Source: a virus
Strand: one strand, 5' to 3'
DNA: 13,883 nt
UHGV virus genome: UHGV-0131300
The notes beneath the pieces are model-generated. The model was not told where the DNA came from and did not search any database. It worked only from the letters and a program-made list of their open reading frames with translations. A program made the translations under genes and the position numbers. How positions within the stretch are numbered: position 1 is the stretch's first letter; every line of letters begins with the position of its first letter. Below are positions 1-13,883 of this stretch, piece by piece.

Positions 1-1
1 G

Positions 2-121
2 TTCAACCGCGAGTCGAACACTCTTGCGTCGAAATCTATCAATGCCGAAGTGACAAACTCCGCGATTGAGCTGAAAGTGTTGATTGAGCAGATGCGCGAG
101 CAGATTCAGAATATCGAATAA
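2..121 (+). CDS. 3' end of a chromosomal gene (C-terminus ...LKVLIEQMREQIQNIE*); possibly yicC, by inference from the dinD-like right flank
   Basis: Open frame 2 from the window edge to TAA at 119..121, followed by an intrinsic terminator. The yicC identity is inferred from my recollection of E. coli K-12 gene order, not recognised from the sequence. Confidence 0.5.
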   Translation, partial: FNRESNTLASKSINAEVTNSAIELKVLIEQMREQIQNIE

Positions 122-158
122 GCTATCAGTAAAAATCACCAAGCAGCAAAAAACCACA

Positions 159-185
159 AAGCCCGCGAAATGTCGGGCTTTTTTG
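159..185 (+). terminator. Rho-independent terminator of the upstream chromosomal gene
   Basis: Stem aagcccg (159..165) / cgggctt (174..180), 8-nt loop, then a T-run to 184. Confidence 0.7.
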
Positions 186-228
186 TTATCATGAGCTATC
201 ATAACGACGCAATAAAGCGCACAATATG

Positions 229-281
229 CGTGTACATAGAGGTGTACATAATGACTTTCATGTACATTGCTTTATGTACAC
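229..281. promoter_or_regulatory. Cluster of four TGTACA palindromic repeats (integrase arm-type or autoregulatory sites) overlapping the int promoter
   Basis: TGTACA at 231..236, 243..248, 261..266 and 275..280, directly upstream of the int start at 310. A CATAAT -10-like hexamer sits at 247..252. Confidence 0.5.
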
Positions 282-309
282 ACCCATATTCGATATTCAG
301 GTATTCGCA

Positions 310-1569
310 ATGCCAAAACTCACAGATATGCAGATCCGCGCATGGATAAAGGCGGGAGACAGATTTGATGGCAAGGCAGACGGCAACGGCCTTTATATTT
401 GCTACCCCAAAAACTACACAGCCCCGTTCTGGCGATTCCGCTATAAGCTCGCAGGAAAGCAGCGGGCTATGGTTATAGGCTCTTACTCCGAACTGTCACT
501 ATCAAAAGCCAGAGAAACAGCAAAAGAGCTGTCAGCCAGAGTTGCTCTTGGCTATGACGTAGCAGCAGAGAAACAGGAACGAAAAGCTGAAGCACTGGCA
601 AAAATGGAGGCTGAGAAAAACGCCATGCGTGTTTCAGATCTGGCCTCCGAATACTTCGAGCGCCAGATACTTCCGAGATGGAAACATCCCGATATCCTTC
701 GCCGGAGAATTGATAAGGATATTAACCCCTGCATTGGGCATATGAAGGTAGAGGACGTTAAGCCACGCCACATTGACGACATGTTGAAAGGTATCGTTGA
801 CCGAGGAGCACCAACGATAGCAACAGATGTATTACGCTGGACACGCCGTATCTTTGACTACGGGATAAAACGCCACGCTCTGGAGATAAACCCTTGTTCA
901 GCGTTTGAAGTATCTGATGCTGGTGGTAAAGAGGTTTCCCGCGACCGTTGGCTAACTCGCGATGAGCTTATCAGGCTATTCGAGGCTATGCGCACCGCAA
1001 AAGGATTCAGCCGCCAGAACGAACTGACATTTAAGCTATTGCTGGCACTATGCGTTCGTAAGATGGAGTTATGCGCCGCACGATGGGAAGAGTTTGATTT
1101 AGATGGTGCGGTATGGCATTTGCCGGAAGAACGCAGCAAAAACGGAGACCCTATTGATATACCTCTACCTTCCCCAGCCGTTGAATGGTTGAGAGAGCTA
1201 CACACCTTTTCATGTAATAGCGCATGGGTGCTTCCAGCCAGGAAGATGCAAAACAGAATGATCCCACATATTCAGGAAAGCACTTTGCCCGTAGCACTGG
1301 CTAAGGTTCGCGCCGAAATGCCGGATGTGCCTAATTTCACGATTCACGACTTCCGACGCACCGCACGTACTCATTTAGCAGCGTTGGGTGTTGATCCTGT
1401 CGTGGCGGAACGATGCCTCAATCATCGCATTAAGGGCGTAGAGGGGATTTATAACCGCCATCAGTATTTTGATGAGCGTAAAGCAGCACTGGCACAGTGG
1501 GCTGATCTGCTGGTGGCACTGGAAAGCGGAAAAGACTACAACGTAACGCCTCTCAGAAGGGCGAACTAA
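310..1569 (+). CDS. int: Tyrosine site-specific integrase, P4-like family
   Basis: N-terminal arm-binding-like region (LTDMQIRAW...GLYICYPKNYTAPFWRFRYKLAGKQRAMVIGSY). C-terminal catalytic motifs HDFRRTARTHL (HxxR) and LNHRIKGVEGIYNRHQY (catalytic Tyr). Start moved to ATG 310 in the 226..1569 frame, because the first 28 codons overlap the repeat/promoter region. Confidence 0.9.
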   Translation: MPKLTDMQIRAWIKAGDRFDGKADGNGLYICYPKNYTAPFWRFRYKLAGKQRAMVIGSYSELSLSKARETAKELSARVALGYDVAAEKQERKAEALAKMEAEKNAMRVSDLASEYFERQILPRWKHPDILRRRIDKDINPCIGHMKVEDVKPRHIDDMLKGIVDRGAPTIATDVLRWTRRIFDYGIKRHALEINPCSAFEVSDAGGKEVSRDRWLTRDELIRLFEAMRTAKGFSRQNELTFKLLLALCVRKMELCAARWEEFDLDGAVWHLPEERSKNGDPIDIPLPSPAVEWLRELHTFSCNSAWVLPARKMQNRMIPHIQESTLPVALAKVRAEMPDVPNFTIHDFRRTARTHLAALGVDPVVAERCLNHRIKGVEGIYNRHQYFDERKAALAQWADLLVALESGKDYNVTPLRRAN

Positions 1570-1664
1570 CTGAATAGATTGAGCCTAGCTCGACGGGGCG
1601 AAAAGCGGGAAGCCTTACCGCCTGGCTCAATCACAAAATAAGGCGCAGCGTAAAAGGTGACGCA

Positions 1665-2630
1665 ATGAACGACTCTCATGAAACAACAGTGGTGCATAGA
1701 AATTTATGGCAGGAATCAGGTATTCCACCTTTGGACTACTGCACGATAGAGCGAGCATCAAAATTATTAAATTGTGAAATTGATGATATATGGCATTGGA
1801 AAGATAGACTACATATAGACTTTTATGTCTATGCTGACTTTCTTGATTTCATTGAATCTGATGCCACCATCCACTTCAAAAAAGATGCTAATTTTATAAC
1901 TGATTTATTACTTATGTACCCAGAAGAAGTAAGGTTTACATTTCCTTTTCTTATTACCAGCGCAAGCAACGAAGTTTATATCCCAGCATCTGAAAGCGGT
2001 GCTTATGAGCTATTTTATGCACATAAACCACTGACAGTTGAAGACAGCGACAATAAAAATGTTTTTGAACAAATTGGCAAAAACTCTTTTATTGTAAGAA
2101 AATCAATTGCATGTGGATTGTTGCGTGTACGCGGTAGAACAACACGACATTATCATTCACAAGAATGTGGAGAACCATATGTGCGACTTGAAGCAACATT
2201 TGATTGTGATCTATATAAATTCAAAATGCAAAGTTCCCAAATTCACCTGAGTAGCCTGTCAGATAAAAACATTTATATAACAAAGGCTGATTTAGAATAC
2301 CTTCATGACGCAAAGGTTAATGGAAGTTTTGACGCAGCTAAGAGCAAAAAACGATACGAAATGGCGGTAGAACAGGAACTAATACCTGAAATAAAAAATA
2401 GCAACCATAATGCCGAGAGACATGCTGAAAACAGGGAAAAACTTTTCAAATCTGCAATATATCTTTTGTCAAAGTATCCTGATGAATGCCGTGGCAAAAA
2501 GAAAGAAATAAGCCCTGAGAAGTGGCGGGATTGCATAGTGGCTCATAAAGACGAAATTCCACCGTTAGCAATCACAAATGAAGATGTGATTTTGAGACAC
2601 TTACGTGCTGCCGCCAACGGTAAGGGGTAG
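1665..2630 (+). CDS. Hypothetical protein, AT-rich orphan cargo gene between int and alpA
   Basis: 321-aa ORF with an SD-like aaggtg upstream and its own intrinsic terminator. Visibly AT-rich and rich in Lys/Asn/Ile/Tyr codons compared with its neighbours. No motif I can assign with confidence. Confidence 0.7.
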   Translation: MNDSHETTVVHRNLWQESGIPPLDYCTIERASKLLNCEIDDIWHWKDRLHIDFYVYADFLDFIESDATIHFKKDANFITDLLLMYPEEVRFTFPFLITSASNEVYIPASESGAYELFYAHKPLTVEDSDNKNVFEQIGKNSFIVRKSIACGLLRVRGRTTRHYHSQECGEPYVRLEATFDCDLYKFKMQSSQIHLSSLSDKNIYITKADLEYLHDAKVNGSFDAAKSKKRYEMAVEQELIPEIKNSNHNAERHAENREKLFKSAIYLLSKYPDECRGKKKEISPEKWRDCIVAHKDEIPPLAITNEDVILRHLRAAANGKG

Positions 2631-2645
2631 AGTAGCTAACTATTC

Positions 2646-2675
2646 AGGCACAGTATCATTACTGTGCCTTTTTAT
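2646..2675 (+). terminator. Rho-independent terminator after the AT-rich ORF
   Basis: aggcacagt (2646..2654) / actgtgcct (2661..2669) stem, followed by ttttta. Confidence 0.7.
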
Positions 2676-2695
2676 TGTTCATATATGTACAGATA

Positions 2696-2743
2696 CTTCC
2701 TCCCGTAACGAAGCAACAACTATCGCTAAGAGGTTACGGGAAG
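2696..2743 (+). promoter_or_regulatory. Imperfect inverted repeat upstream of alpA, overlapping the region between its SD and start codon
   Basis: cttccTcccgtaac (2696..2709) pairs with gttacgggaag (2733..2743). A TGTACA motif lies at 2686..2691. Confidence 0.4.
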
Positions 2744-2744
2744 C

Positions 2745-2948
2745 ATGAACACCGACACTATTCCTACAAAAGGCTATATCAGACGCTTCCGCCTGGCTGA
2801 ATTGCTGGGCGTTAGTGTATCCACCATCGACCGTAAAGTAAGAAACGGTTCACTACCACGTCCGGTAAAGCTGGGAGAAAAAATAACTGCGTTTGATGCG
2901 GTTGAGATTCACAACTGGCTGGCAGAACGCCGCGGGAAGGTGGCCTGA
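2745..2948 (+). CDS. alpA: AlpA-family DNA-binding regulator / excisionase-like protein
   Basis: 67 aa with the pattern FRLAELLGVSVSTIDRKVRNGSLPRPVKLGEKITAFDAVEIHNWL, typical of AlpA/Xis HTH proteins; sits immediately after the int module. Confidence 0.8.
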   Translation: MNTDTIPTKGYIRRFRLAELLGVSVSTIDRKVRNGSLPRPVKLGEKITAFDAVEIHNWLAERRGKVA

Positions 2949-3379
2949 TGGAAAAGAAAAACCGCCCATTACAGGCGGCTAATTCAGATATTCGCGTATC
3001 TGATGTTACGCCCCTGACAAAATCCCTTCAAGCACCAAAGCGCACACCGAAAAAGCATCGTGCCAGAGTCTATATGCTGCGTACTGGTATAGAGGGATGG
3101 ACAGAAAATGACATTCTTCGCTACTGCCGTCTGTCTTCTGGTCGTAACTATGCAACAGAGTTAGAACGCCAGCTTGGAATCACTCTGGAGCGTATCGACG
3201 AAAAGAATCCTGATGGTATCGGAACACACCTTCGCTACCGTTTCTCCTGCCGTGGTGATGTTCTGAAAGTGATCACTCATGTTAACCATCTTGCGAACAT
3301 AAATGATCACAACGGACTTTCTCAGCAGGAAATTGCCGACATTCTGAAACTCTACCCGAACGCGTTTAACGCCGCCTAA
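2948..3379 (+). CDS. Hypothetical protein (143 aa), basic N-terminus
   Basis: ATG overlaps the alpA stop (TGATG), indicating translational coupling. No recognisable motif. Confidence 0.6.
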   Translation: MEKKNRPLQAANSDIRVSDVTPLTKSLQAPKRTPKKHRARVYMLRTGIEGWTENDILRYCRLSSGRNYATELERQLGITLERIDEKNPDGIGTHLRYRFSCRGDVLKVITHVNHLANINDHNGLSQQEIADILKLYPNAFNAA

Positions 3380-3391
3380 CGGAGACTGAAA

Positions 3392-4225
3392 ATGAACATC
3401 GAAAAAAGCAGATTAATTTCTGAGGCCGCCCCTCATCTGAACGCCTCTCTGGGCACAATTAACGGTAATGAATTTGCCGCAATTGTCCCGGTTATTCCTG
3501 GTCATATCGGTGGGCGTGAAACCAATATTGTTAGCGCAAAAGCGTTACACAAAGCGTTGGGCGTGGGAAAAGACTTCTCTACATGGATCACTGATCGCAT
3601 CTCTGAATATGACTTCACCATTGGGCACGATTACTCAGTCCATAAAACAATTTCCCCAAATTTGGGGAAAAGCCCGAATGGCGCGGCTTACAGCAAGATA
3701 AAGCACTCTGGCAGACCCGGCAAAGACTATCTGTTAAGTGTCGGAATGGCGAAAGAACTGGCAATGATCGAACGCAATGATCAGGGTCGCGCTATCCGCC
3801 GTTATTTCATCCAGTGCGAGGAAGAATTACAGCGTACCGTGCCTGAAATCGCCGCCCGCTATCGTCGCCAGCTAAAAGCCCGTATCAGTGCCGCAAACAA
3901 CTTTAAGCCAATGTGCGATGCGCTGAATATGGCCCGTGCCGAGCTGGGTAAAACGACGCAGCAGCGCCACTACAGCAACGAGAGCAACATGATCGCCCGT
4001 ATCGTGCTGGGTGGCATGACGGCAAAGCAGTGGGCGCAGGCAAATGGCATTACTGGCGAACCACGGGACAGCATGAACGCAGCACAGCTTGAACACCTCT
4101 CCTATCTGGAAAGCACCAATATCACGCTAATTGAGCTGGGGCAGGACTACGACCAGCGCAAAGCTGAATTAATACGACTGTCTCAGCGCTGGCTGGCGAA
4201 GCGTATGAGGGTAAGCCATGCGTAA
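3392..4225 (+). CDS. Phage antirepressor-like protein (AntA/Rha-type N-terminal domain)
   Basis: GGAG SD 7 nt upstream. N-terminal segment SAKALHKALGVGKDFSTWITDRISEYDF...DYLLSVGMAKELAMIERNDQGRAIRRYFIQCEE resembles antirepressor N-domains. Confidence 0.6.
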   Translation: MNIEKSRLISEAAPHLNASLGTINGNEFAAIVPVIPGHIGGRETNIVSAKALHKALGVGKDFSTWITDRISEYDFTIGHDYSVHKTISPNLGKSPNGAAYSKIKHSGRPGKDYLLSVGMAKELAMIERNDQGRAIRRYFIQCEEELQRTVPEIAARYRRQLKARISAANNFKPMCDALNMARAELGKTTQQRHYSNESNMIARIVLGGMTAKQWAQANGITGEPRDSMNAAQLEHLSYLESTNITLIELGQDYDQRKAELIRLSQRWLAKRMRVSHA

Positions 4226-4400
4226 CCAAAACCCCCAGCCGGGAAGCCGTTACAAGGATTCTCACGGGGCTGTAGTGACCGTTGAGCGCGTCGAGCATAA
4301 CCGAGTGACCTTTTACCGCGAGGGCTATCAGTCGCCATGTGTTCAGCCTTTGGAGAGATTCGTTAATGAGTTCGTGGAGGTGCGCCGTGATACTGAATGA
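4218..4400 (+). CDS. Small hypothetical protein (60 aa)
   Basis: ATG 4218 overlaps the end of the preceding gene (stop 4223..4225). Confidence 0.5.
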   Translation: MRNQNPQPGSRYKDSHGAVVTVERVEHNRVTFYREGYQSPCVQPLERFVNEFVEVRRDTE

Positions 4401-4840
4401 ACCTGCCGCCCAGAAAGAAGCCTTTAATCTGGCTGGCCTGTTAGCAAATGTTAACCCTTACAACCTGTCAAAACCTGACATTCATCGCCGCGCCGTTGCG
4501 ACAAATGACGACATTTTAGAGGCGTTTTCTGGGCTGAGAATTGGGCTGCGAATCCTAATAAATCCTAAGTTTTTTTCGCATTTCGTGACCAGTACGCGCG
4601 AGAAAGTTTTTTCTGACAACACTACGCCAGTGGAAAATTATTCCGCTGTCTTGAGTTTTCGGAGCATTACGCGCCCGTCTGGGGAGTTTTCGGACTATGT
4701 AAAAAAGGGCAGTACCTACAGGTCAGACCACCAGCAGGAAAATCAGTGTTATAGTCCCAGTGTTGCTGCAAAATCAGCAACCGGGCGTGGAAACCCGAAC
4801 ACACTCAGGGCGACACAGACGCCGAAAGCGTCTTTTTTTG
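4401..4840 (+). ncRNA. Candidate non-coding regulatory RNA or leader region ending in an intrinsic terminator
   Basis: No credible coding signal despite an open frame. Direct repeat gagttttcgga at 4653..4663 and 4684..4694; hairpin gttgctg/cagcaac at 4762..4781; terminator gacgc-cgaaa-gcgtc plus T7 at 4818..4839. Confidence 0.35.
4818..4839 (+). terminator. Rho-independent terminator inside the non-coding region
   Basis: gacgc (4818..4822), loop cgaaa, gcgtc (4828..4832), then ttttttt (4833..4839). Confidence 0.75.
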
Positions 4841-5028
4841 TGTCCGTTCACTACGCACATCAAATCAGCGGCCTCGTCCGTACTGTATCTATGGTGGCGT
4901 TAGTGGGGCTACGTTCGCGTAGGCCGGTTTCCTTTGTGTCCGGTATTTCCACCCCTGCTAACGTCACCGCCATTTCAGAGCGTGGAAACTCAGGCGGTGA
5001 CTCCTTAAACACAAAGGAGGCTGCCATC

Positions 5029-5217
5029 ATGGCTACTACCCCTACCCAAAATCCACAATTTATCTGGTTAATCGCAGCCGTTCGCCGCGACATGCCGACA
5101 ATTACCGCCAAAATCCATCATGTTGCTGCCGAAAGCGAGCGCGAAGCACGTCAAACTCTGGCACGAGATCACGTCTGTTTCTTTGCAGGCCGCATCCGTC
5201 TGGAGGTGGCAGCATGA
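5029..5217 (+). CDS. Small protein (62 aa), first gene of the replication operon; possibly Icd-like
   Basis: Strong SD aaggagg (5014..5020) 8 nt before ATG 5029. The upstream part of the 4339..5217 frame crosses a terminator and is rejected. The Icd-like family assignment is low confidence. Confidence 0.65.
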   Translation: MATTPTQNPQFIWLIAAVRRDMPTITAKIHHVAAESEREARQTLARDHVCFFAGRIRLEVAA

Positions 5218-5411
5218 GCCGTGAACTCACCTTAGAGCAGGCCGCAGAACGCGCGCACCAGACTGAAATAATTGCCCGTCTGGTTGAAGACTTCCCCCAT
5301 CACCTTGCCGATAGCGAAGTATCCGCAATCGCCACTCCGCTAAAGCGCCTTTCCGGTGACGTTACCGCATGGCTGATTGAAGAATTGGCAGAACGGGAGG
5401 GGAAGCGATGA
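5214..5411 (+). CDS. Small hypothetical protein (65 aa)
   Basis: ATGA start/stop overlap with the preceding ORF; ggagg SD at 5202..5206. Confidence 0.6.
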   Translation: MSRELTLEQAAERAHQTEIIARLVEDFPHHLADSEVSAIATPLKRLSGDVTAWLIEELAEREGKR

Positions 5412-5587
5412 AACAGGGACTAAGCGTTAGTGAAGTAATGTGCAGAATCCAACAGGCGCAGACCGTCCTCACCATGTGGCTTCACACCATGACCACCGAC
5501 GACGGGGAAGCGCCCGATATGGTGGATGCGGTGCTGACAATCTTAGACGGGCTGGCCGATGCGCTGGCAGTGGAGAGTGACAAATGA
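5408..5587 (+). CDS. Small hypothetical protein (59 aa), absent from the supplied ORF track; paralog of the next gene
   Basis: ATGA overlap at both ends (5408 and 5584). Translation MKQGLSVSEVMCRIQQAQTVLTMWLHT... shares the C-I---AQ-VL-MWL motif with the 5584..5805 product. Confidence 0.55.
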   Translation: MKQGLSVSEVMCRIQQAQTVLTMWLHTMTTDDGEAPDMVDAVLTILDGLADALAVESDK

Positions 5588-5805
5588 GCCAGTTACAACT
5601 GATTGATGCTGCCTGCCAGATTGAACCGGCACAGGCTGTTTTATCCATGTGGCTGGAGAGCACCAACAAAGACACTAGCCCCGACCTTCCGCGTCTTATC
5701 GGTTCAATCCTCACTTTGCTGCATGGCGTCCCGGAGGCAATGGAAGAAGCCGAAAGCAAGCTGGCTGACTATGTGATGCGTGAATATCGGGAGGGCAAAG
5801 CATGA
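5584..5805 (+). CDS. Small hypothetical protein (73 aa)
   Basis: ATGA overlaps on both sides; paralogous to the 5408..5587 product. Confidence 0.6.
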   Translation: MSQLQLIDAACQIEPAQAVLSMWLESTNKDTSPDLPRLIGSILTLLHGVPEAMEEAESKLADYVMREYREGKA

Positions 5806-6428
5806 GCAATATACTGACCATTAAACCGGGAAATCCCGACCTGTTCCACGCCGAAGCCACACCGCACGGCGTCAATATCATGACCCGCAATGATGCCGGG
5901 ATGTATGAGCATGTTTGCCTTGTTCCCTATTCAGACGCGGTAACTCATCTCGATAGCGGCAGGTATGACGACATCCCTGATGAAGGATTTACCCTGCATC
6001 TGGCAGTGGCTGACGGCGGGGAGCGTGGCTGGTTCGACTTCACCGCGCAGCATAACGTCACTATGTGGCGCTGGCTGATTGCTGCGACGTTCGTTTCTGA
6101 GATGAAGCGCGAGAACGGCACCACCACGGTTACTGAGGCTGACGGCACATCATCGCAGGTGGCGATTTACTCCAATGGTAATGCGGGCATGGTGGTTTAC
6201 CCGTTTGCTGAACGGCTGGCGATGGCGAACAACATCGAGGGCGCAATGATTGAGCGCTACGGCGTTGAGCAGGGAACAGAGAACGCCATTGTGTTCTACC
6301 GCGCCATGCTGGATACGGAGCGCGGCGAGCTGACCCCGTTCGGACGTGAAACGCTGGCAGAGCTACACGATCACTTCATTGCTGATCTGGATGAAAACGG
6401 CTGGCCTGAAATGCCAGCGGCGCACTGA
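5802..6428 (+). CDS. Hypothetical protein (208 aa)
   Basis: ATGA overlap with the upstream ORF; gggagg SD. No recognisable motif. Confidence 0.65.
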   Translation: MSNILTIKPGNPDLFHAEATPHGVNIMTRNDAGMYEHVCLVPYSDAVTHLDSGRYDDIPDEGFTLHLAVADGGERGWFDFTAQHNVTMWRWLIAATFVSEMKRENGTTTVTEADGTSSQVAIYSNGNAGMVVYPFAERLAMANNIEGAMIERYGVEQGTENAIVFYRAMLDTERGELTPFGRETLAELHDHFIADLDENGWPEMPAAH

Positions 6429-6437
6429 GGGGGCGAC

Positions 6438-6779
6438 ATGATTACCAAAAACTTCCGACTGAATGCGCTGGCGAACCAGTACGCGGCGGCACTTTACAAC
6501 CACATCACGGCTATCAATGGTGGCAATTACTTCATGGTTGACGCGGCAGGCCAGCAAATCCGTGTGGAACTGGTGGGCGGTATCAGTGGCACGCGCCAAC
6601 TTATTGATGGTTACGCGCTCGAAGCACTCAAAGAGACATACCCTCAGTGGGAAAGCATCGGGATCACCATGCTGGAGAAATGCGTCAATGCTGGTGGCCT
6701 GACTGATACCGGGCGCGAGATATGGCAAAGCATGATTAATGATATGGGCGCGACCGTGGCAGGAGGCAACCATGCGTAA
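6438..6779 (+). CDS. Hypothetical protein (113 aa)
   Basis: gaggggg SD; its stop overlaps the primase start (ATGcgTAA). Confidence 0.6.
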   Translation: MITKNFRLNALANQYAAALYNHITAINGGNYFMVDAAGQQIRVELVGGISGTRQLIDGYALEALKETYPQWESIGITMLEKCVNAGGLTDTGREIWQSMINDMGATVAGGNHA

Positions 6780-9213
6780 TATCGACCTTATCCGCGAAGT
6801 GACCAGCGCCGCAGCAGGGCGCTGGCCTTATGTGCTGGCTGGCCTGTCTATCGACGTGCCTGATTCATCACGCCGTCATGCCCCCTGCCCTGCATGTGGC
6901 GGTACGGATCGCTTCCGGTTCGACGACAACGGTCGCGGTAGCTTTATCTGTAACCAATGCGGCGCGGGCGACGGCTTAGACCTGATTAAGAAGGTGAACA
7001 ACTGCGACACCACAGAGGCGGCACAGCTTGCCGCTGATGTGCTGGGTATTGATTACCGGGCAGCGCAAACCGACCCGGCGGCAGCGAGCCAGAGAAGGGA
7101 GCAACTGGAAGCTGACCGCCAGCAGCGTGAGCAGGAGCGCCAGCAACAGGCAGCAGATGACGCAGAGCAGCGAAGGGCTACGTTTGCCCATCTGTATGCC
7201 GGAATGCGCCAGAGTGCCACACAGGGCGAATCTGATTACCTGCAATCAAAAGGGCTGACCGGGTTTAACTATCCGGTTATGCCGGATGGTTCGTTATTGC
7301 TGGAGCTGGTGGACGAATCCGGCGCAGTGGCAGCAGCGCAAACCATTACACCGCAGGGAGAGAAGCGACTCCTGACAGGTTCAGCAAAGCGCGGGGCATA
7401 TCACGCCGTAAACGCGCCAGAATCGCCGCAGAGCGTTTTAATTGCCGAGGGGCTGGCGACGGCCCTTTCAGTTCACCTGATGCGCCCGGACGCGCTGGCA
7501 GTGGCAGCAATTGACGCGGGCAACCTGCTACCCGTTGCCGAAGTGATGCGCCGGATATATCCAGCCACGCAGATTATCATTGCCGCAGATAACGACCACC
7601 AGCAGGACGAACAGGCGAACACGGGCAAAGATGCCGCAGAGAAAGCCGCCTTATCCGTGGCTGGCTGGGTGGCACTGCCGCCGACAGACTACAAAGCCGA
7701 CTGGGACGACTACCGCCAGCAAAACGGGCTGGAAGTCGCTACGGCTGCGTTTAACGATTCGATGTACCAGATTCAAGGGGAAGCCGTGAAACCGCGATTG
7801 CAAGCCATTGAGGGCGGTAAATCCCGCCGTAAAGCCGATGTCGGAGATATTGCACAAATGGCAGCCAGCCAGAAAGCGCGGTTGCTTTCATCTCGATGGG
7901 ATATGTTGGCGGTTAACCCTGATAGTGGCACTGTTTACTGCTACGAATCTGGCGTATGGGTGAAGCTACCAGACAGCGAATTAGAAAGGGTTATGGTGGC
8001 AATTTTCGACGAGCACGAAGCCCACTACACCGAAAAGGGGATTAAATCGGTTGTCGCAACCATGAAGCTGCAAATACCGGTAATTGGTGAGCGGAGCGGG
8101 GATCTGATTGGTTTTGATAACGGCGTTTATGACCTCGCTACGCAGACGTTTTCCGCCCATTCGCCGGGTAACTGGCTGATGAACCACAATGGGATCACCT
8201 ACACCCCGCCAGCGCCGGGGGAAAATATTACCACCAGCGCCCCCAATTTTACCCGTTGGCTGAATCATGCAACGGCTGGCGACCATCATAAGGCCGAGCG
8301 TATCAAAGCAGCCTTGTTTATGGTGCTGGCGAAGCGTCACGACTGGCAGCTATTCATTGAGATAACTGGCGAGGGCGGTAGTGGGAAATCCGTATTCAGC
8401 AGCATAGCAACCACGCTGGCAGGTGAACACAACACCGCCAGCGGTAGCATGATGACGCTGGACACCGCACGGGGACGGGCGCAGTTCGTAGGAAAAAGCC
8501 TGATTATTATGCCTGACCAGACCCGCTATGTTGGAGAGGGTGCGGGGATTAAAGCCATTACGGGCGGCGATCCGGTAGAGATTGATGGGAAATATGAAAA
8601 GCAGTTCACAACCGTGATAAATGCCGTTGTTATGGCAACCAATAACGAGCCGATGACATTCACGGAGCGAAACGGGGGCATTGCCCGCCGCCGCGTGATA
8701 TTCCCGTTTAATAACCCGGTATCAGACGCAGACAAAGACCCGGATTTAACCGCAAAAATCAGGCGAGAAATCCCGGTGATTATCCGCCACCTGCTAACCA
8801 CCTTTGCCGACCAGAACAAAGCAAAGTCACTATTACTTGAGCAGCGCGATTCTCAGGAGGCGCTAGACGTTAAACGCGGCACAGATCCGGTTATCGATAT
8901 GTGTGCGGCACTTTTTTTCATGAACGAACCCAAAGGCATGATGATGGGCGGAGGTACATGGGCAGGCCAGCCAGAGCCTAGGACGTATCTTTATCATCTT
9001 TATCTGGCGTTTATGGAGTATCACGGTTTGGGTAAACCGCTTTCCGTCAATAAGTTTTCACGCGCCATAAAATCAGCAGCAAAAGAGTACCGAGCCAGCT
9101 ACCTGACGAGAAGCATTAACGGCAGAGCGCAAACCAACGTTGGCTATAACGAGAAGGCTGAGGAGTTCATGCCACGCGCTTACGGTGTGGAGAGCGGGCA
9201 GAGTGATGATTGA
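6772..9213 (+). CDS. DNA primase-helicase, P4 alpha-like (zinc finger, TOPRIM-like region, D5-type NTPase)
   Basis: Zinc finger CPACGG...CNQCG near the N-terminus; acidic IIIAADNDHQQDE segment; Walker A ITGEGGSGKSVF; Walker B-like SLIIMPDQ. AGGAGG SD at 6761..6766 favours ATG 6772 over the track start at 6739. Confidence 0.9.
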   Translation: MRNIDLIREVTSAAAGRWPYVLAGLSIDVPDSSRRHAPCPACGGTDRFRFDDNGRGSFICNQCGAGDGLDLIKKVNNCDTTEAAQLAADVLGIDYRAAQTDPAAASQRREQLEADRQQREQERQQQAADDAEQRRATFAHLYAGMRQSATQGESDYLQSKGLTGFNYPVMPDGSLLLELVDESGAVAAAQTITPQGEKRLLTGSAKRGAYHAVNAPESPQSVLIAEGLATALSVHLMRPDALAVAAIDAGNLLPVAEVMRRIYPATQIIIAADNDHQQDEQANTGKDAAEKAALSVAGWVALPPTDYKADWDDYRQQNGLEVATAAFNDSMYQIQGEAVKPRLQAIEGGKSRRKADVGDIAQMAASQKARLLSSRWDMLAVNPDSGTVYCYESGVWVKLPDSELERVMVAIFDEHEAHYTEKGIKSVVATMKLQIPVIGERSGDLIGFDNGVYDLATQTFSAHSPGNWLMNHNGITYTPPAPGENITTSAPNFTRWLNHATAGDHHKAERIKAALFMVLAKRHDWQLFIEITGEGGSGKSVFSSIATTLAGEHNTASGSMMTLDTARGRAQFVGKSLIIMPDQTRYVGEGAGIKAITGGDPVEIDGKYEKQFTTVINAVVMATNNEPMTFTERNGGIARRRVIFPFNNPVSDADKDPDLTAKIRREIPVIIRHLLTTFADQNKAKSLLLEQRDSQEALDVKRGTDPVIDMCAALFFMNEPKGMMMGGGTWAGQPEPRTYLYHLYLAFMEYHGLGKPLSVNKFSRAIKSAAKEYRASYLTRSINGRAQTNVGYNEKAEEFMPRAYGVESGQSDD

Positions 9214-9232
9214 AACTTTTACGGCGGCACTT

Positions 9233-9478
9233 ATCCCTACTGCCCTACTAAAAACGAGACGAGGCCAGACGTAGCAAGGCTTTAAACTAGGTAGGGATAT
9301 ATATTTTTATCCCTACTTATCCCTACATATCCCTACCAAATAAAACAGGCAGTAAAATGCCGTTGAAGTGATTTAGTAGGGATAAGTAGGGTTATGTAGG
9401 GCAACAAAATTGAATGCCTACCAGTCTGAAAGCCTTGCCATTCGTGGCCTGAGCCAGTTAGTAGGGATTGGTAGGGAT
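9233..9478. repeat. Iteron array (putative replication origin): about 10 copies of GTAGGGAT / ATCCCTAC at 10-bp phasing around an AT-rich spacer
   Basis: atccctac at 9233..9240, 9309..9316, 9319..9326, 9329..9336. gtagggat-type copies at 9291..9298, 9376..9383, 9386..9393, 9396..9403, 9461..9468, 9471..9478. Lies immediately downstream of the primase gene. Confidence 0.75.
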
Positions 9479-9530
9479 ATTACACCCCCAAAAAGATTCT
9501 ATGGGGGGTAGCTTAAAACGAAGGTGGGCA

Positions 9531-9833
9531 ATGAATACAGAAACCAGCCAGAAAATGACCTATCAGGAGCGTGAAGCATTGAAGGGGTTTACTGACAAAC
9601 GCGCATTACAGGGCGACACCCAAAGCCTGCAAATGACCTTGAGGATGATCGCCCACTGGATGAGGCAGCCAGCAGAAATTGGATTTACAGAATATGCAAC
9701 ACACTGGACGGCGGCACAGGCCGGACGTGATGACGGGAATCACTCGACCGCAGCAATGGCGGAGCAGTGGCCTTTAAGGGAAGAAATGAAAATTAGCCCC
9801 GGAGGTAGTGACTACATGAGGAAATATCTATGA
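9531..9833 (+). CDS. Hypothetical protein (100 aa)
   Basis: Start chosen at ATG 9531 (aagg SD) rather than the track start at 9468, which lies in the iteron/hairpin region. Stop overlaps the next start. Confidence 0.5.
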   Translation: MNTETSQKMTYQEREALKGFTDKRALQGDTQSLQMTLRMIAHWMRQPAEIGFTEYATHWTAAQAGRDDGNHSTAAMAEQWPLREEMKISPGGSDYMRKYL

Positions 9834-10264
9834 CAGCACAAATTTCAGCATACGGGCGGCTGGTGGCAGATCCCCAGACCCGCACCACAACGAACGGTAA
9901 CAACATGGCTATGGCGCGGCTGGCGGTGTCTCTCCCCTGTAATGCGGCAGAGGCGGGAGAGTCAACCTTCTGGCTGGGCGTTATTGCTTTTGGGAAGCAG
10001 GCCGATGCGCTGGCGAAGCACCAGAAAGGCGACCTTGTGAGCGTGGCAGGCAATATGCAACTCAACCAGTGGACAGGGCAGGACGGCGGTACACAGCAGG
10101 GGTATCAGGTAGTAGCCGACAGTGTGATCAGCGCCAGAACGGTACGCCCCGGCGGGAAGGCAGGACAGCGGGGACAGGCAACGGACGCGCTGAGACGTGC
10201 GCAGCAGCCATCCCGTGATGAATACGACCAACGCCCACCATTCGACGATGAAACGCCATTCTGA
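9830..10264 (+). CDS. Single-stranded DNA-binding protein-like (OB fold with SSB-type acidic C-terminal tip)
   Basis: N-terminal region is alignable with bacterial SSB (GRLVADPQTRTTTNGNNMAMARLAV...FWLGVIAFGKQADALAKHQKGDLVSVAGNMQLNQWTGQDG). A Gly/Gln-rich linker ends in PPFDDETPF, compared with DFDDDIPF in E. coli SSB. Confidence 0.8.
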   Translation: MTAQISAYGRLVADPQTRTTTNGNNMAMARLAVSLPCNAAEAGESTFWLGVIAFGKQADALAKHQKGDLVSVAGNMQLNQWTGQDGGTQQGYQVVADSVISARTVRPGGKAGQRGQATDALRRAQQPSRDEYDQRPPFDDETPF

Positions 10265-10274
10265 GAGGGAAGAT

Positions 10275-10916
10275 ATGAGTACGCAACCCATCATTATTGA
10301 GTTCGGCAGCTATCGCTGGCCCAGACATCTTGCAATACATGAAGCAGGTCATGCGATAGCCGCATGGTTTTTCGGCATACAGGAGGTAGAAATTGCGTTA
10401 TCGGGTAATAACCGAGTGGCAAAAACCTACCTTAGCGGCGATGTTGATGAATGTGGAGCTGTCGCGGTATGGCACGCCAACTATCCACGGAATGTGGCTG
10501 AGGTTAAGTCTTACACCCTCTCGAATGATGACACCAGGTTACGTCTGATAGACCAGGTATGCCGGGCTATGGTTATCTCTCTGGCTGGTATCGTCGCGCA
10601 ATCACGCTATACGGAGGATGATATTGACGCACTGATGGAAACGTCCGGGAAAGCAGATATGAAAAATGTTCGTGATTTATCCGAGGTATACCGGGTAGCT
10701 GGTGGGGAGGACGCCGATATACAGCGAATATCCCTTTCCCGCGCTCAGGCGCTGATTACCCTGAAATGGTGGGATGTTATCGCGCTGGCGAAAATACTGG
10801 AGAACCGTAACCATATGCCCGCCAGAAACTTCCAGCGCATTATGGGCGATATCGACAAGCCTGTACCAAAGCCTCTGACGCTGGCTGAACTGGATGAATT
10901 GGTGGGTGAAGAATGA
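10275..10916 (+). CDS. HExxH zinc metallopeptidase-like protein (FtsH/M41-like HEAGHA motif), no AAA+ domain
   Basis: Motif HLAIHEAGHAIAAW near the N-terminus matches the FtsH protease-domain signature HEAGHA. gaggg SD before ATG 10275 (track start 10197 rejected). The protein is only 213 aa. Confidence 0.65.
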   Translation: MSTQPIIIEFGSYRWPRHLAIHEAGHAIAAWFFGIQEVEIALSGNNRVAKTYLSGDVDECGAVAVWHANYPRNVAEVKSYTLSNDDTRLRLIDQVCRAMVISLAGIVAQSRYTEDDIDALMETSGKADMKNVRDLSEVYRVAGGEDADIQRISLSRAQALITLKWWDVIALAKILENRNHMPARNFQRIMGDIDKPVPKPLTLAELDELVGEE

Positions 10917-11263
10917 AGCAATACATTCTGGCAGCCTGCCTGATCTCCTCTGCACCGGCACTATCTGCTATCCATTGTGGGGGCTTTACAATACAGCCAG
11001 ATCGTTATCGGACAACGATTAACGGCGATGTGGTTCATATTATTGATGCGCAATTTTACGGCGCGCCGCGAGACTTTAGCCAGGCCGCCATAAAGTTATT
11101 GCCTGATGCCATCACCACTACCGACAGGCAATACCGCCTGGAGACGCAGGGAGGCAATGCTTCGCTGGAGTTGATGACCAGAGAGCAACCGCCACGCGTG
11201 CTTAATCGTGAGCGCTGCGATTCCGGGCTAACAGGCTTTTACTGGTACTCGTCTGTGCCGTGA
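10913..11263 (+). CDS. Small secreted protein (Sec signal peptide)
   Basis: N-terminus MKQYILAACLISSAPALSA has the positive, hydrophobic and AxA pattern of a signal peptide. ATGA overlap with the peptidase gene. Confidence 0.6.
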   Translation: MKQYILAACLISSAPALSAIHCGGFTIQPDRYRTTINGDVVHIIDAQFYGAPRDFSQAAIKLLPDAITTTDRQYRLETQGGNASLELMTREQPPRVLNRERCDSGLTGFYWYSSVP

Positions 11264-11389
11264 GGTTCGCACCGAACGCAGGCTAAAATACTAGACTGTT
11301 CTTGACAGATTTTAAACCCTCGTAGCGCTAAACCCGCGCCAGCAGAGGGCTGGAAGCCAGAGCGTGATTTAGGCCGTCCAGAATATTCA

Positions 11390-11505
11390 GGTTCGCGCCA
11401 CTGGTTCGCAGTGCGCAAAATAGTGCGCAATTTACAGTAAAATACGCATATTATTTCGTATTCAATTTGCGCACCGTTCGCAGTTAATGCGCAGTAATTC
11501 GCAGG
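11390..11505. promoter_or_regulatory. Operator-like region: multiple TGCGCA palindromes and TTCGCAG repeats around an AT-rich inverted repeat
   Basis: TGCGCA at 11411..11416, 11424..11429, 11468..11473, 11488..11493. TTCGCAG at 11405..11411, 11477..11483, 11498..11504. Inverted repeat aatacg (11441..11446) / cgtatt (11456..11461) flanks catattattt. A TTGACA sits at 11302..11307. Confidence 0.5.
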
Positions 11506-11515
11506 AGGCCAGCCA

Positions 11516-11992
11516 GTGAGAGACAGAACGCGCAGCTATACCACCGACCTGCCCCGCATAGGGTTGCCATTCCTTTCGCACATGCGTAGCAGGCTGGCGG
11601 ATGCTGAACCGGGTACGCAGCTTTATACCCAGACCGAAAGCGGAACGTTGTATACCTTCCGGCAAGCCGACAGCTACGCCATGACAATCAACGGCGTGAC
11701 GCGGGCGATTCGCACCACAACCACACAGGCCGGGTATGGCGTGCGGGAATGGTACGTTTGTCCCCACTGTATGAAACGGGTGGCGAAGCTGTATATTGGC
11801 AAAAAAGATCATCCGTATGACTTCCCGAAGCCAAAGGGGATGCGCTGGGCTACGTTTGACAGGAAGCGGGCAGAATTATCAGTTATGGAGATGGCTTACT
11901 GGCAGGCATTCAGCCCGGTAGTGGGCAGAATCACGGGCGTTATTGAGCGTAAAGCAGGAAAAGCAGCCAGAGGCATTGGCCTGACTCTATAA
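11516..11992 (+). CDS. Hypothetical protein (158 aa) with one CPHC motif
   Basis: GTG start with AGGAGG SD at 11503..11508. Contains REWYVCPHCMKRVAKLY. No family assigned. Confidence 0.6.
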   Translation: MRDRTRSYTTDLPRIGLPFLSHMRSRLADAEPGTQLYTQTESGTLYTFRQADSYAMTINGVTRAIRTTTTQAGYGVREWYVCPHCMKRVAKLYIGKKDHPYDFPKPKGMRWATFDRKRAELSVMEMAYWQAFSPVVGRITGVIERKAGKAARGIGLTL

Positions 11993-11999
11993 AAGCAAA

Positions 12000-12016
12000 A
12001 CGCCCGCACGGGGCGT
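12000..12016. terminator. GC hairpin; T-rich tail is on the minus strand (possible bidirectional or minus-strand terminator)
   Basis: acgccc (12000..12005) / gggcgt (12011..12016). The plus strand has an A-tract upstream and no T-tract downstream; the minus strand has tttgctttta after the stem. Confidence 0.4.
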
Positions 12017-12223
12017 CAGAGAACGGGATAGACTTCTGCGACAATTTGCATTCGCCGCCAATATAGCAAGTCGTCCACATCAAGCAATAAACTATCACCG
12101 GGAGGGGGAGGCCAAATCTCTGCAATCCTGAGCCTTAAGGACTGCCCGCCCCATCGTTTTTTTATACCCGCGAAAAATGAAATTTAATCCGGGCGTGTTT
12201 CATCCTTCCAGAGGGTATGACGT

Positions 12224-12409
12224 ATGACACCACGCGAAATAGCCTTATTGACCATCGCCAAACTTGAGCACGGAGGCCACCAGCTTACACAGGCAGATCA
12301 ACGGGAGATAGAACGCTCAGTTAATGCCGATATAGCCCGGCGCGACAGGTTCCGCGAAATGATGCGAGCACCTGCCTACCAGTGGAAGAAGCCAGCGCCG
12401 CGCAGGTAG
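12224..12409 (+). CDS. Small hypothetical protein (61 aa), charged and helical-looking
   Basis: gaggg SD 8 nt before ATG 12224. Confidence 0.5.
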   Translation: MTPREIALLTIAKLEHGGHQLTQADQREIERSVNADIARRDRFREMMRAPAYQWKKPAPRR

Positions 12410-12529
12410 ATACGGGATTATTCCGCATGTAACTTATGCGTATTAAGCAAATTTCCTTTATTCACCTTTACAGAATTGTGAGTGCGTCAGTATCGTTATC
12501 CTTCCGATTCGCATTTATTCAGGATTTGC

Positions 12530-13072
12530 ATGTACCAGCTAAAGATAACCATCCGAGACAGCAAACCACCTATATGGCGGCGTGTGCTGGTTCCAGAGCA
12601 AATCCCCTTTAGTAAACTTCATGCCGTGATCCAGTTGGCTTTTGGCTGGAATGACGAACACCTGTATATGTTCGAGAAAGGGCGTAAAGGTGATCCCGGT
12701 AGCGAGTATCGCGTATGGGGTGAGGATGAAAGCATGGGTAATGCGGCAATCACACCACTATGGGCAGCGCTCCAGAATGATGGTGACAAGCTGGTTTACA
12801 CGTATGACTTTGGCGACTGGTGGGATTGCGTCATTGTGCTGGAGAAGCAAACACACGATACGAGCAATCAGCCCATTAGCTGCCTGCGTGGGAAAGGCAC
12901 CACCCCGGTGGAAAACTCAGGCGGCTTGCATGGTTACAATGAATTGCTATTACAGGCCAGAGAGTCTGATAATCCTGAGCAGGCCGAGATCCACAATTTC
13001 CTGATGCTGGATATTGAGCGCCGGGTTTACGACCTGAGCAGCATCAACGACAGATTGCAGGCTCTTAACTGA
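12530..13072 (+). CDS. pRiA4b ORF-3-like domain protein (180 aa)
   Basis: N-terminus MYQLKITIRDSKPPIWRRVLVPEQIPFSKLHAVIQLAFGWNDEHLYMF matches the characteristic start of the plasmid pRiA4b ORF-3-like family. Start moved from track GTG 12482 to ATG 12530, which has an agga SD. Confidence 0.65.
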   Translation: MYQLKITIRDSKPPIWRRVLVPEQIPFSKLHAVIQLAFGWNDEHLYMFEKGRKGDPGSEYRVWGEDESMGNAAITPLWAALQNDGDKLVYTYDFGDWWDCVIVLEKQTHDTSNQPISCLRGKGTTPVENSGGLHGYNELLLQARESDNPEQAEIHNFLMLDIERRVYDLSSINDRLQALN

Positions 13073-13424
13073 CCCGCATATATTCGCCTGATATTGCGTT
13101 ATCAGCGCCGCCAGTATCGCGCATAACAGCGCACTGACCGGGCAAACCGTAGCGCACGACCGTTGCGTTAGTCTCACCGCCGCGCCGTATCTGGCGCGAT
13201 TCATACACTGTCACCCGCTCAAGCAGTCCACCAGCAACCATGCTTTCCAGTGTGCGCCGGGTTGATTCGATCTGGTGGCGCTTATCGAACGACACCATGC
13301 CATGAAGCAGGTAGGCCACACCCGACACATCGAACGGCGGCGCACCAATCTCACCAGTCACCCATTCGAGGTTATCCGGTTCAAAGTAGCTAAGTATCTC
13401 TTTTTTGCGGCTGGTCATTCTCAT
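13065..13424 (-). CDS. Hypothetical protein (119 aa), convergent with and overlapping the 3' end of the preceding gene
   Basis: Minus-strand ORF MRMTSRKKEILSYFEPDNLEW...; its 3' end overlaps 12530..13072 by 8 bp. Last gene inside the element before the right-end repeats. Confidence 0.55.
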   Translation of the reverse strand: MRMTSRKKEILSYFEPDNLEWVTGEIGAPPFDVSGVAYLLHGMVSFDKRHQIESTRRTLESMVAGGLLERVTVYESRQIRRGGETNATVVRYGLPGQCAVMRDTGGADNAISGEYMRVS

Positions 13425-13544
13425 GGCTGGCAGGTTCCTTATTGTGGGATAGCGGTATCATACAATAAGGCGCAAAAGATAAGAGGCCAGAACAGCAAGC
13501 ATGAGAGCATAAAATGAGCAGCCAAAGACAGCACCTCAAAATAC

Positions 13545-13564
13545 CGTGTACACAAGGGTGTACC
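13545..13564. promoter_or_regulatory. Right-end copy of the TGTACA arm-type repeat pair
   Basis: cgtgtacacaagggtgtac (13545..13563) matches cgtgtacatagaggtgtac (229..247) at 16 of 19 positions, in the same orientation. Confidence 0.5.
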
Positions 13565-13673
13565 TACTGAGAAAACGCATTACAAGAAATACAGCAACCA
13601 CGGGAGTTTAAAGCCACTACTCAATAAACAGATTCAACTCGTAACGCCAATTCTTACTTTTCAGCCTTCACAA

Positions 13674-13705
13674 ATGCCGCCCACTCAAACAGAGCGGCAT
13701 TTTTC
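13674..13705 (+). terminator. Rho-independent terminator-like hairpin between the element's right end and the SOS-regulated gene
   Basis: atgccgc (13674..13680) / gcggcat (13694..13700) with a 13-nt loop, then ttttt (13701..13705). Confidence 0.5.
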
Positions 13706-13794
13706 TTCCCCGCAACTTCAATTCTGTTTTGCGTGCCTGCTCCAGATTTTGCGATGTTTTTTTGCCCAGCACACTGAGAACGTGAGATACTCAC

Positions 13795-13814
13795 AACTGT
13801 ATATAAATACAGTT
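13795..13814. promoter_or_regulatory. LexA (SOS) box aaCTGTatataaatACAGtt
   Basis: Perfect CTGT-N8-ACAG palindrome with a TA-rich centre at 13797..13812, about 45 bp upstream of an ORF start. Confidence 0.75.
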
Positions 13815-13857
13815 ACAGATTTACTTTCTTTGCAATCGATATCACATGGAGTGGGCA

Positions 13858-13883
13858 ATGAACGAACATCATCAACCTTTTGA
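13858..13883 (+). CDS. dinD: 5' end of an SOS-regulated gene (MNEHHQPF...), likely dinD; truncated by the window edge
   Basis: ggag SD at 13848..13851 and ATG 13858 downstream of the LexA box. The box and N-terminal peptide match my recollection of E. coli dinD; this is not verifiable here. An in-frame ATG at 13846 is an alternative start. Confidence 0.45.

Follow-up and report, generated by a model that had tools for sequence, protein, structure and literature searches.

A probable EcCIMP1-like phage satellite at the 3′ end of yicC in Escherichia coli and the patterned erosion of its right attachment site

Described satellites and the island at yicC

The closest described relative of the island treated here is EcCIMP1, a phage-inducible chromosomal island (PICI) of Escherichia coli MP1 whose helper is the P22-like phage vB_EcoP_Kapi1 (Pick, Stadel & Raivio 2025; PMC11773190). 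EcCIMP1 was excised, circularised and transduced only with its helper Kapi1, int and alpA being required, and among EcCIMP1-like elements the antirepressor, Ash and primase genes are kept while int, alpA and perC are variable (PMC11773190). At the yicC locus, PICIs have been predicted in E. coli O145:H28 (EcCIRM13514, at yicC-dinD, attachment [att] sequence GAGCAGATTCAA) and in Citrobacter freundii (CfCIP10159, at yicC-yicG, att sequence ATCGAGTAAG) (Fillol-Salom et al. 2018; PMC6092414, Table S1). Likewise, dinD/yicC has been catalogued as defence-island hotspot #2, with islands shown as ‘integrase-only’ and of unclear mobilisation (Hochhauser, Millman & Sorek 2023; PMC10121019). The stretch analysed here, UHGV-0131300, comprises 13,883 nt of E. 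coli chromosome (hereafter the window) and carries an island between yicC and dinD.

The window is read, with a probability of roughly 0.85, as holding an EcCIMP1-like PICI of about 13.5 kb that was put into the 3′ end of yicC by its own tyrosine integrase. The island is a mosaic relative of EcCIMP1, and thus a known kind of satellite at a catalogued E. coli hotspot. The shared backbone consists of int, alpA, orf143, antA, a DUF4222 gene, Ash/Icd, small open reading frames (ORFs) and the primase gene, and further along orf61, PRiA4 and orf119. Nine genes are 63–100 % identical at the protein level, among them orf143 (98 %), AntA (90 %), orf61 (100 %), PRiA4 (98 %) and orf119 (97.5 %); the N-terminal 348 aa of the primase are 72 % identical and the icd part 82 %, and structural or lysis genes are found in neither element. 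The differences concern the integrase, which is only 29 % identical (EcCIMP1 is located in tRNA-Thr with a 10-bp repeat; PMC11773190), AlpA, for which tblastn gave no match at E ≤ 1e-5, and the C-terminal half of the primase, which is unlike. The window is also without the P22-like ejection-protein genes and perC of EcCIMP1, and carries SSB, orf213, orf116 and orf158 instead. This distribution fits the published EcCIMP1-like pattern of kept and variable genes.

With respect to the features by which PICIs are recognised (Fillol-Salom 2018), the island has int, alpA, a primase/replicase gene with an origin, and one direction of transcription, 20 of its 21 genes being on the + strand. Its 13.5 kb fall within the usual size of ~10–15 kb, with no structural or lysis match in Pfam or PHROGs. 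For the hijacking of packaging, nothing was recognised by Pfam, PHROGs or PADLOC. From the P4-like core of SatelliteFinder (int, psu, delta, sid, alpA, epsilon and alpha), the island has no more than int, alpA and an alpha-type primase.

Attachment core, crossover and integrase clade

An earlier note, made from the letters of the window, had described an integrase-borne element at a non-tRNA site whose right side continues into the LexA-box promoter of an SOS gene, and had proposed alignment to an element-free chromosome. These observations hold. No tRNA or tmRNA was found in a search of the whole window, a P4-type integrase gene lies at the left end, and the SOS gene is dinD, with its ATG at 13858. 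The flanks are contiguous in E. coli K-12, where yicC and dinD are adjacent, and in 3933 of 5426 complete E. coli genomes. In the RefSeq annotation of strain 0H26 the gene order is rph, yicC, the 21-gene island, dinD and yicG.

Alignment to the empty K-12 site ends at the yicC stop codon (119–121), directly 3′ of which K-12 reads CTCGTAACGCC, and restarts at 13638. The inserted DNA is therefore window 122–13637 (13,516 bp) rather than 186–13566 as had been proposed, with the attL core beginning at 101. The core itself is the last 21 bp of yicC, CAGATTCAGAAyATCGArTAA, which are its last six codons and stop codon. From the window alone the ends had appeared to share no clean identical core. Such a core is present in full in attB, in attL and in two attP sequences; it is the attR of the window that has lost 12 bp and keeps 9 of 21. 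An intact attL was seen in five islands.

The two attP sequences come from molecules of close relatives, one of them from a viral contig collection. The first, NZ_LT599831 (‘phage_14408_2’), reads ...ACAAA-CAGATTCAGAATATCGAATAA-GCTATCA... and is a separate 19.2-kb record that starts and ends within one gene, as expected of a circular molecule; between its integrase and that of the window the identity is 98.8 %. The second, an IMG/VR viral contig, reads ...AATAAA-CAGATTCAGAACATCGAGTAA-GCTATCA...; a terminal overlap that would mark it as a closed circle was looked for and none was found. The attP rebuilt from the window, by joining 13400–13636 to 109–330, is colinear with both. Since the P arms of these two attP, which are independent of each other, run colinearly with 13440–13636, this segment is the island's own arm and not, as had been suggested, the remnant of an earlier insertion.

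The position of the crossover can be narrowed from the alleles on either side. Only one block, CAGrTyCA at core positions 1–8, is common to all attL/attR or attP/attB pairs. To the right of this block attL has island alleles (T12/G18 in S43, AAATGTGGAGTAA in RM13514), and at positions 12–18 the attL alleles track the island and the attR alleles the host; position 18 of attR goes without exception with the host allele downstream of it (GCC or ACT). Given these patterns, strand exchange would take place inside CAGATTCA or at its edge, to the left of core position 9.

The site is frequently occupied. The yicC-dinD arrangement is interrupted in ~1500 genomes, and the islands that were opened, a subset of these, are all of the yicC-integrase type. 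Searches of the E. coli genomes found attL as in the window in ~280, the attR arm as in the window in ~325 and the integrase gene in ~335 of 5426. ECONIH4, 0H15-0H26 and CAVP776 carry identical or nearly identical copies of island and flanks. In some genomes the K-12 match breaks elsewhere, namely at intergenic position 292, past the yicC terminator and short of the dinD promoter, which points to a further insertion site there that is unrelated to the one at yicC.

Related integrases were then considered across species, one genome being taken per species, which gave 79 loci. A yicC homologue lies upstream of the integrase gene in 52 of them, full-length in 51 and partial in Rouxiella badensis, and in the many loci with both positions tabulated yicC ends ~190 nt upstream of the integrase gene. 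Where integrase identity is below 41 %, yicC is absent from every locus; above 41 %, six loci are without it and two more are on contigs too short to show it. The hosts include many Enterobacterales as well as Aeromonas, Tolumonas, Zobellella, Vogesella, Azonexus, Propionivibrio and Steroidobacteraceae. Even in hosts whose YicC is only 41–45 % identical overall, the nucleotide sequence of the last yicC codons is conserved. As judged from these loci, the integrase clade is dedicated to yicC across Gamma- and Betaproteobacteria. With yicC as the rule for the clade, the lack of a tRNA, previously regarded as unusual for this integrase family, is the norm and not an oddity. One contig labelled ‘Chryseobacterium sp. 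18061’ (CACSKA010000004.1) carries an Enterobacter-like yicC (92 % identical) together with this integrase (90 % identical), and is probably a contaminant or from a mislabelled assembly.

The clade has thus followed the conserved 3′ end of yicC across Enterobacterales, Aeromonadales, Rhodocyclales and Steroidobacteraceae, using the terminus of a protein gene as other integrases use tRNA genes. The exact 21-bp core corrects the short, inconsistent att strings published previously, GAGCAGATTCAA and ATCGAGTAAG being fragments of it, and explains the ‘integrase-only’ islands at hotspot #2. Literature searches on the 21-bp core sequence found no relevant paper, and those on yicC, dinD and integrase jointly found descriptive treatment only.

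Deletions at attR

The shortened attR of the window is one of a series. A total of 38 attR sequences were compared, together with 60 alignment spans, out of ~325 attR copies. Complete E. coli genomes (the window and RM13514 among them) and metagenomes gave 17 sequences each, viral contigs 3 and a further genome 1. Four of the 38 have an intact core, 12 have lost 2 nt (-2) and 22 have lost more (-4 to -12). Nested deletions of 2–12 bp are seen in ~90 % of E. coli copies, and all begin right after CAGATTCA. The -2 form reads CAGATTCA-ACATCG..., and the remainders in the -4 to -12 forms are ATTGAGTAA, ATGAGTAA, AGAGTAA/AGAATAA, GAGTAA/GAATAA, AGTAA, GTAA, TAA, GA/AA and A. The alignment spans of the 60 best genomes suggest ~12 % intact, 48 % -2 and 40 % larger deletions. 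CAVP773 and LWY24 are examples of an intact attR, S43, NT1F10 and RM13514 of the -2 form and 0H26 of the -10 form. The -12 form of the window is also found in ECONIH4, in E2348/69, an enteropathogenic E. coli (EPEC), and in an O157:H7 strain. The attL spans are invariant. It was considered whether the -2 form could be a property of attP, the arm being naturally 2 bp shorter; this was rejected, as both attP have the full 21 bp. A scan of viral contigs allowing 0–2 nt at the -2 position found the full form only.

The pattern suggests that the point after CAGATTCA is the right edge of the strand-exchange region, and that the attR series reflects repeated one-sided damage linked to integrase action, with host-side bases lost stepwise. 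A link to the integrase is favoured because the common left edge of the deletions coincides with the right end of the crossover segment proposed above. In its explicit form, in which abortive cleavage or ligation would take 1–2 nt each time from the host-side core site, so that the deletions are footprints of the integrase and their fixed left edge marks the strand-exchange boundary, the proposal is tentative and less likely than not.

The integrase may instead have no mechanistic part, the deletions being neutral decay of a functionless 13-bp fragment of yicC, or a survivor bias towards islands that do not excise; this too is possible, if doubtful. The yicC fragment in attR is non-coding, so that deletions within it cost nothing, and both the -7 classes, which are flanked by GA(A) microhomology, and the -2 deletion of Zobellella, which is in an A run, fit slippage. 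However, in every one of the 38 copies ...AAACAGATTCA and CTCGTAAC are retained on the left and right side, respectively, and all length changes are confined to the 13 nt between them; the P arm (~45–110 nt displayed per copy) and the core-adjacent B′ flank show substitutions only. The left edge is identical beyond E. coli, in Zobellella (-2) and Erwinia endophytica (-4), five other non-E. coli sites being intact and that of a Steroidobacteraceae locus (L137) probably altered. The -2 form is on at least 4 host alleles and at least 5 P-arm types, and is thus recurrent. Additionally, over 13.9 kb the window is separated from strain 0H26 by one single-nucleotide polymorphism and by 2 nt exactly at the attR point (A versus TAA), the latter being their sole length difference. 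Lastly, CAGATTCA is complete in every copy, although selection for immobility alone would leave it unprotected. The fixed edge and the local hypermutability are not accounted for by neutral decay or survivor bias alone.

Several points count against the integrase as the cause of this damage. The scans of metagenomes and viral contigs needed both AAACAGATTCA and CTCGTAAC, and deletions beyond either could not appear in them; only the complete-genome set, 16 sequences, is free of this anchor bias, and it was chosen for differing alignment lengths. The role given to the integrase is drawn from patterns in the sequences. Furthermore, a -2 scar is present in yicC of two island-free cattle strains, 13E0780 (L169, 1500–1540) and 13E0725, where the gene ends CAG ATT CAA CAT TGA and encodes 285 aa instead of 287. 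The scar may come from excision of a -2 island, or from a loss arising in attB, or -2 sites may be fully functional. Scarred empty sites of the -12, -11, -10, -7, -4 and -2(T) forms were not found in the 60 best of 95 matching genomes, all of them occupied (a full-length match would rank first); the -2 (ACATTG) form of the two cattle strains is the only one seen as an empty site.

Loss of attR sequence by the integrase, if true, would mean that satellites are progressively locked into the chromosome and that rare excision stamps a truncating scar into yicC. Comparative genomics alone could then map recombinase cleavage points and date the residence of islands, and a recombinase-driven route to the domestication of mobile elements would be added, one that was not found described. 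The erosion pattern may be the one new feature of this locus. It bears on how satellites become fixed and on whether copies such as those of the window or EPEC E2348/69 still move.

In the window, the integrase, AlpA, primase and origin of the island look intact, but of attR the crossover segment CAGATTCA(A) is left, and the adjacent 12 bp and the whole host-side core site are lost. Excision of this copy is probably impaired, as the lost 12 bp lie next to the crossover segment, and it is unlikely that the copy still excises. Any excision would damage yicC by read-through past the normal stop codon into the intergenic region. ECONIH4 (NZ_CP026399) is the only genome identical to the window across attR; its island copy is broken by an ISSpu7-family IS1634-like element, an insertion that the window does not have.

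Gene content, life cycle and comparison with known elements

The assignment to the satellites has its own weak side. Pfam, PHROGs and PADLOC recognised nothing terminase-like/TerS or Rpp-like in the island and no gene for capsid remodelling, and neither a cos nor a pac site was identified. Helper dependence would follow from a relative whose integrase, AlpA and primase C-terminus are unlike those of the window. EcCIMP1, however, has no annotated terminase or Rpp gene, and it is transduced (PMC11773190).

It is improbable that the island is no phage satellite at all, and instead a P4-like element in decay, what is left of a prophage, or an integrative mobilisable element that is transferred by conjugation. 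The P4-family primase, the C4/CI-like RNA and the AlpA and Ash/Icd homologues could be read in this way, as could the failure to find packaging genes and the classing of the hotspot islands only as ‘integrase-only’ by Hochhauser et al. (PMC10121019). In contrast, among the 20 proteins scanned neither Pfam nor PHROGs matched any family of structural, lysis, terminase, relaxase or type IV secretion proteins, or P4 psu, delta and sid. The island agrees in gene order and in nine genes with EcCIMP1, for which helper transduction is experimental (PMC11773190), and the relative with the 98.8 % identical integrase is a separate, circularly permuted 19-kb record with P22-type ejection-protein genes.

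Homologues of P22-type DNA-ejection proteins (a DUF2824 protein, an ejection protein and an injection/transglycosylase protein) are an unusual satellite cargo. They are located at 16445–19226 plus 1–1878 of NZ_LT599831 and at 5781–10949 of EcCIMP1; the window is without them.

The arms flanking the genes account for most of what had been noticed at the ends. The repeat pair 229–247/13545–13563 is real (16 of 19 positions are identical, no other 19-mer pair of this kind occurs between the arms, and 0.01 would be expected from shuffles) and was also reported by a repeat search of the window. It consists of two GTGTAC units 12 bp apart. GTGTAC occurs at 230, 242 and 276, with further TGTAC repeats up to 285, and 6 of the 8 copies in the window are at 230–281 and 13546–13563, where they are conserved in both attP. 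The GTGTAC pairs are best read as predicted arm-type binding sites, since the integrase has an arm-binding domain, and not as core; they lie ~110–160 bp inside the left end and ~70–90 bp inside the right end. The other pair proposed, 190–204/13500–13514, was considered as an att site and rejected: only 9 of 15 positions are identical, at chance level (374 such pairs between the arms versus 216 in shuffles), and it is not conserved in the two attP.

The left junction had been placed after the terminator of a protein gene. That terminator is carried by the island: it is conserved in attP, a terminator is found at the same position in islands of many genera, and most yicC islands of the clade have a hairpin terminator directly after the rebuilt stop codon. 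Conversely, the second terminator, which had been suggested to insulate the SOS gene, is the native one of yicC and no feature of the element, though it may still block read-out. Thus the earlier note is partly confirmed as to observation and partly supported as to interpretation. Its model of an element at 186–13566 ended by imperfect repeats, with the DNA from 13566 to the terminator left by an earlier insertion, can draw on one real repeat pair and on an attR that looks degenerate from the window alone, but is refuted by the junctions at 121|122 and 13637|13638 in the empty-site alignment and by two attP continuous across 13440–13636, the core and 122–330; its other repeat pair is at chance level.

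The features of the window are collected in Table 1. The integrase matches PF13356 (71 bits), PF22022 (61 bits) and PF00589 (62 bits), all over the cut-offs. Its catalytic R...HxxR...H...Y residues, assigned by eye from the protein sequence, are intact (VRKMEL, HDFRRT, LNH and GIYNRHQY in the translation). The int-alpA RNA motif lies immediately 3′ of the integrase stop codon. Between int and alpA is a gap in which satellites often carry anti-phage genes. The gene in this gap differs per island, lying at 2186–3031 in L005, 2084–3034 in L006, 7149–7799 in NZ_LT599831 and 2529–3179 in L168. For orf321 of the window, the only PADLOC match is a weak one to PDC-S31 (E=0.002), beyond which PADLOC found no known defence system.

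Table 1. Positions of the island, its arms and its flanks in the 13,883-nt window
Feature	Position	Strand	Remarks
yicC 3′ end, chromosomal	1–121	+	Last 39 codons and stop codon (119–121)
attL core	101–121	+	21 bp, intact, CAGATTCAGAATATCGAATAA; identical to attP core of NZ_LT599831
P′ arm	122–309	+	Absent from empty site, present in both attP; terminator and predicted arm-type integrase sites
Island-borne Rho-independent terminator for yicC	158–181 and T run		Inside the insert
Tyrosine integrase, 419 aa	310–1569	+	P4-type; arm-binding, central/core-binding and catalytic domains
int-alpA RNA motif, RF02996	1578–1644	+	60.6 bits versus gathering score 35.8
Variable cargo gene, orf321 (321 aa)	1665–2630	+	int-alpA gap; without family match
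Regulatory module	2745–4400	+	AlpA-family helix-turn-helix (HTH) protein (2745–2948), orf143, AntA/AntB antirepressor (3392–4225), DUF4222 protein (Pfam)
C4-type antisense-RNA immunity module (predicted)	4749–5217	+	a1/b1 targets and isrK (4749–4838), C4 RNA (4887–4974), icd-like ORF (5029–5217)
Small ORFs, orf208, orf113, P4-family primase-helicase	5214–9213	+	Primase-helicase 6772–9213, 813 aa
Probable replication origin	9233–9478	.	Nine GTAGGGWT iterons, two opposed clusters
Accessory region	9531–13424	+	orf100, SSB (9830–10264), orf213, orf116, orf158, orf61, PRiA4_ORF3 protein, orf119
PRiA4_ORF3 protein	12530–13072	+	
orf119	13065–13424	-	
P arm	13425–13628	+	Colinear with P arm of two attP; paired predicted arm-type sites GTGTACacaaggGTGTAC at 13546–13563
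attR core remnant	13629–13637	+	CAGATTCAA; 12 of 21 core bases (GAAyATCGAATA) missing
Chromosomal B′ side	13638–13883	+	As in empty site: yicC terminator, dinD LexA box, dinD start
Native yicC terminator	13674–13705		Hairpin, present in empty K-12 site
dinD LexA box	13797–13812		CTGTATATAAATACAG

The C4 antisense RNA is matched in full by Rfam (81 bits), and the short icd-like ORF downstream has a Shine-Dalgarno sequence. RefSeq calls a 276-aa ‘Ash/Icd’ coding sequence (4387–5217) over the C4 region, with a Pfam match to Phage_ASH. On the sequence features, 4749–5217 would be RNAs plus a short ORF rather than part of a single long coding sequence, and the long Ash/Icd coding sequence, perhaps the Phage_ASH match too, may be translations of an RNA immunity locus. 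At the probable origin, nine iterons were found versus 0.41 expected.

By homology to EcCIMP1 and to P4/P1 modules, the following life cycle would apply. The C4-type antisense RNA would keep the island silent until a helper phage of the P22-like group turns it on through AlpA; the island would then excise, replicate from the iteron origin with its primase-helicase and be packaged in helper particles.

The island brings a synonymous copy of the last yicC codons, which at attL are island-supplied yet encode QIQNIE* as in K-12, together with its own terminator; thus YicC is unchanged, while the native terminator and dinD are moved 13.5 kb downstream. Control of dinD is probably unchanged, as the sequence from the yicC stop codon through dinD is as in the empty site. 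The dinD LexA box is the sole CTGT-N8-ACAG in the window, and the window scan found no second box inside the island. In four of the island-bearing genomes that were opened (L004, L010, L016 and L168) dinD is annotated as a pseudogene, with an internal stop or frameshift.

Compared with EcCIRM13514, the island shares the attachment site, an integrase 89 % identical and, in RM13514, an attR in the -2 form; AlpA is 68 % and SSB 61 % identical. Most other genes differ, e.g. the Rha-type regulator, the shorter primase and the ProQ/FinO and PerC proteins of EcCIRM13514. The description of hotspot #2 (PMC10121019) concerns the same locus without an att core, an integrase clade or a satellite assignment. 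No known defence system was detected in the window copy.

With P4 the island has in common an arm-binding tyrosine integrase, an AlpA/Vis-type HTH protein, a P4-family primase-helicase followed by iterons, and a C4/CI-type immunity RNA upstream of the replication genes. These are all features of P4, an element that integrates in tRNA-Leu (leuX) and has P2 as helper. The C4 region of the window may also be an immunity locus resembling the c4-icd locus of P1 and P4. In contrast to P4, no match to sid, delta or psu was found among the window proteins in Pfam or PHROGs.

In its choice of site, the island can be compared with phage 21 and the e14 element, which integrate into the 3′ end of icd and supply replacement codons. 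Here as well the insertion is inside the 3′ end of a protein gene that is kept intact by codons from the element. However, the gene and the integrase are different ones, the yicC island also brings a terminator, and its target is conserved across two proteobacterial classes.

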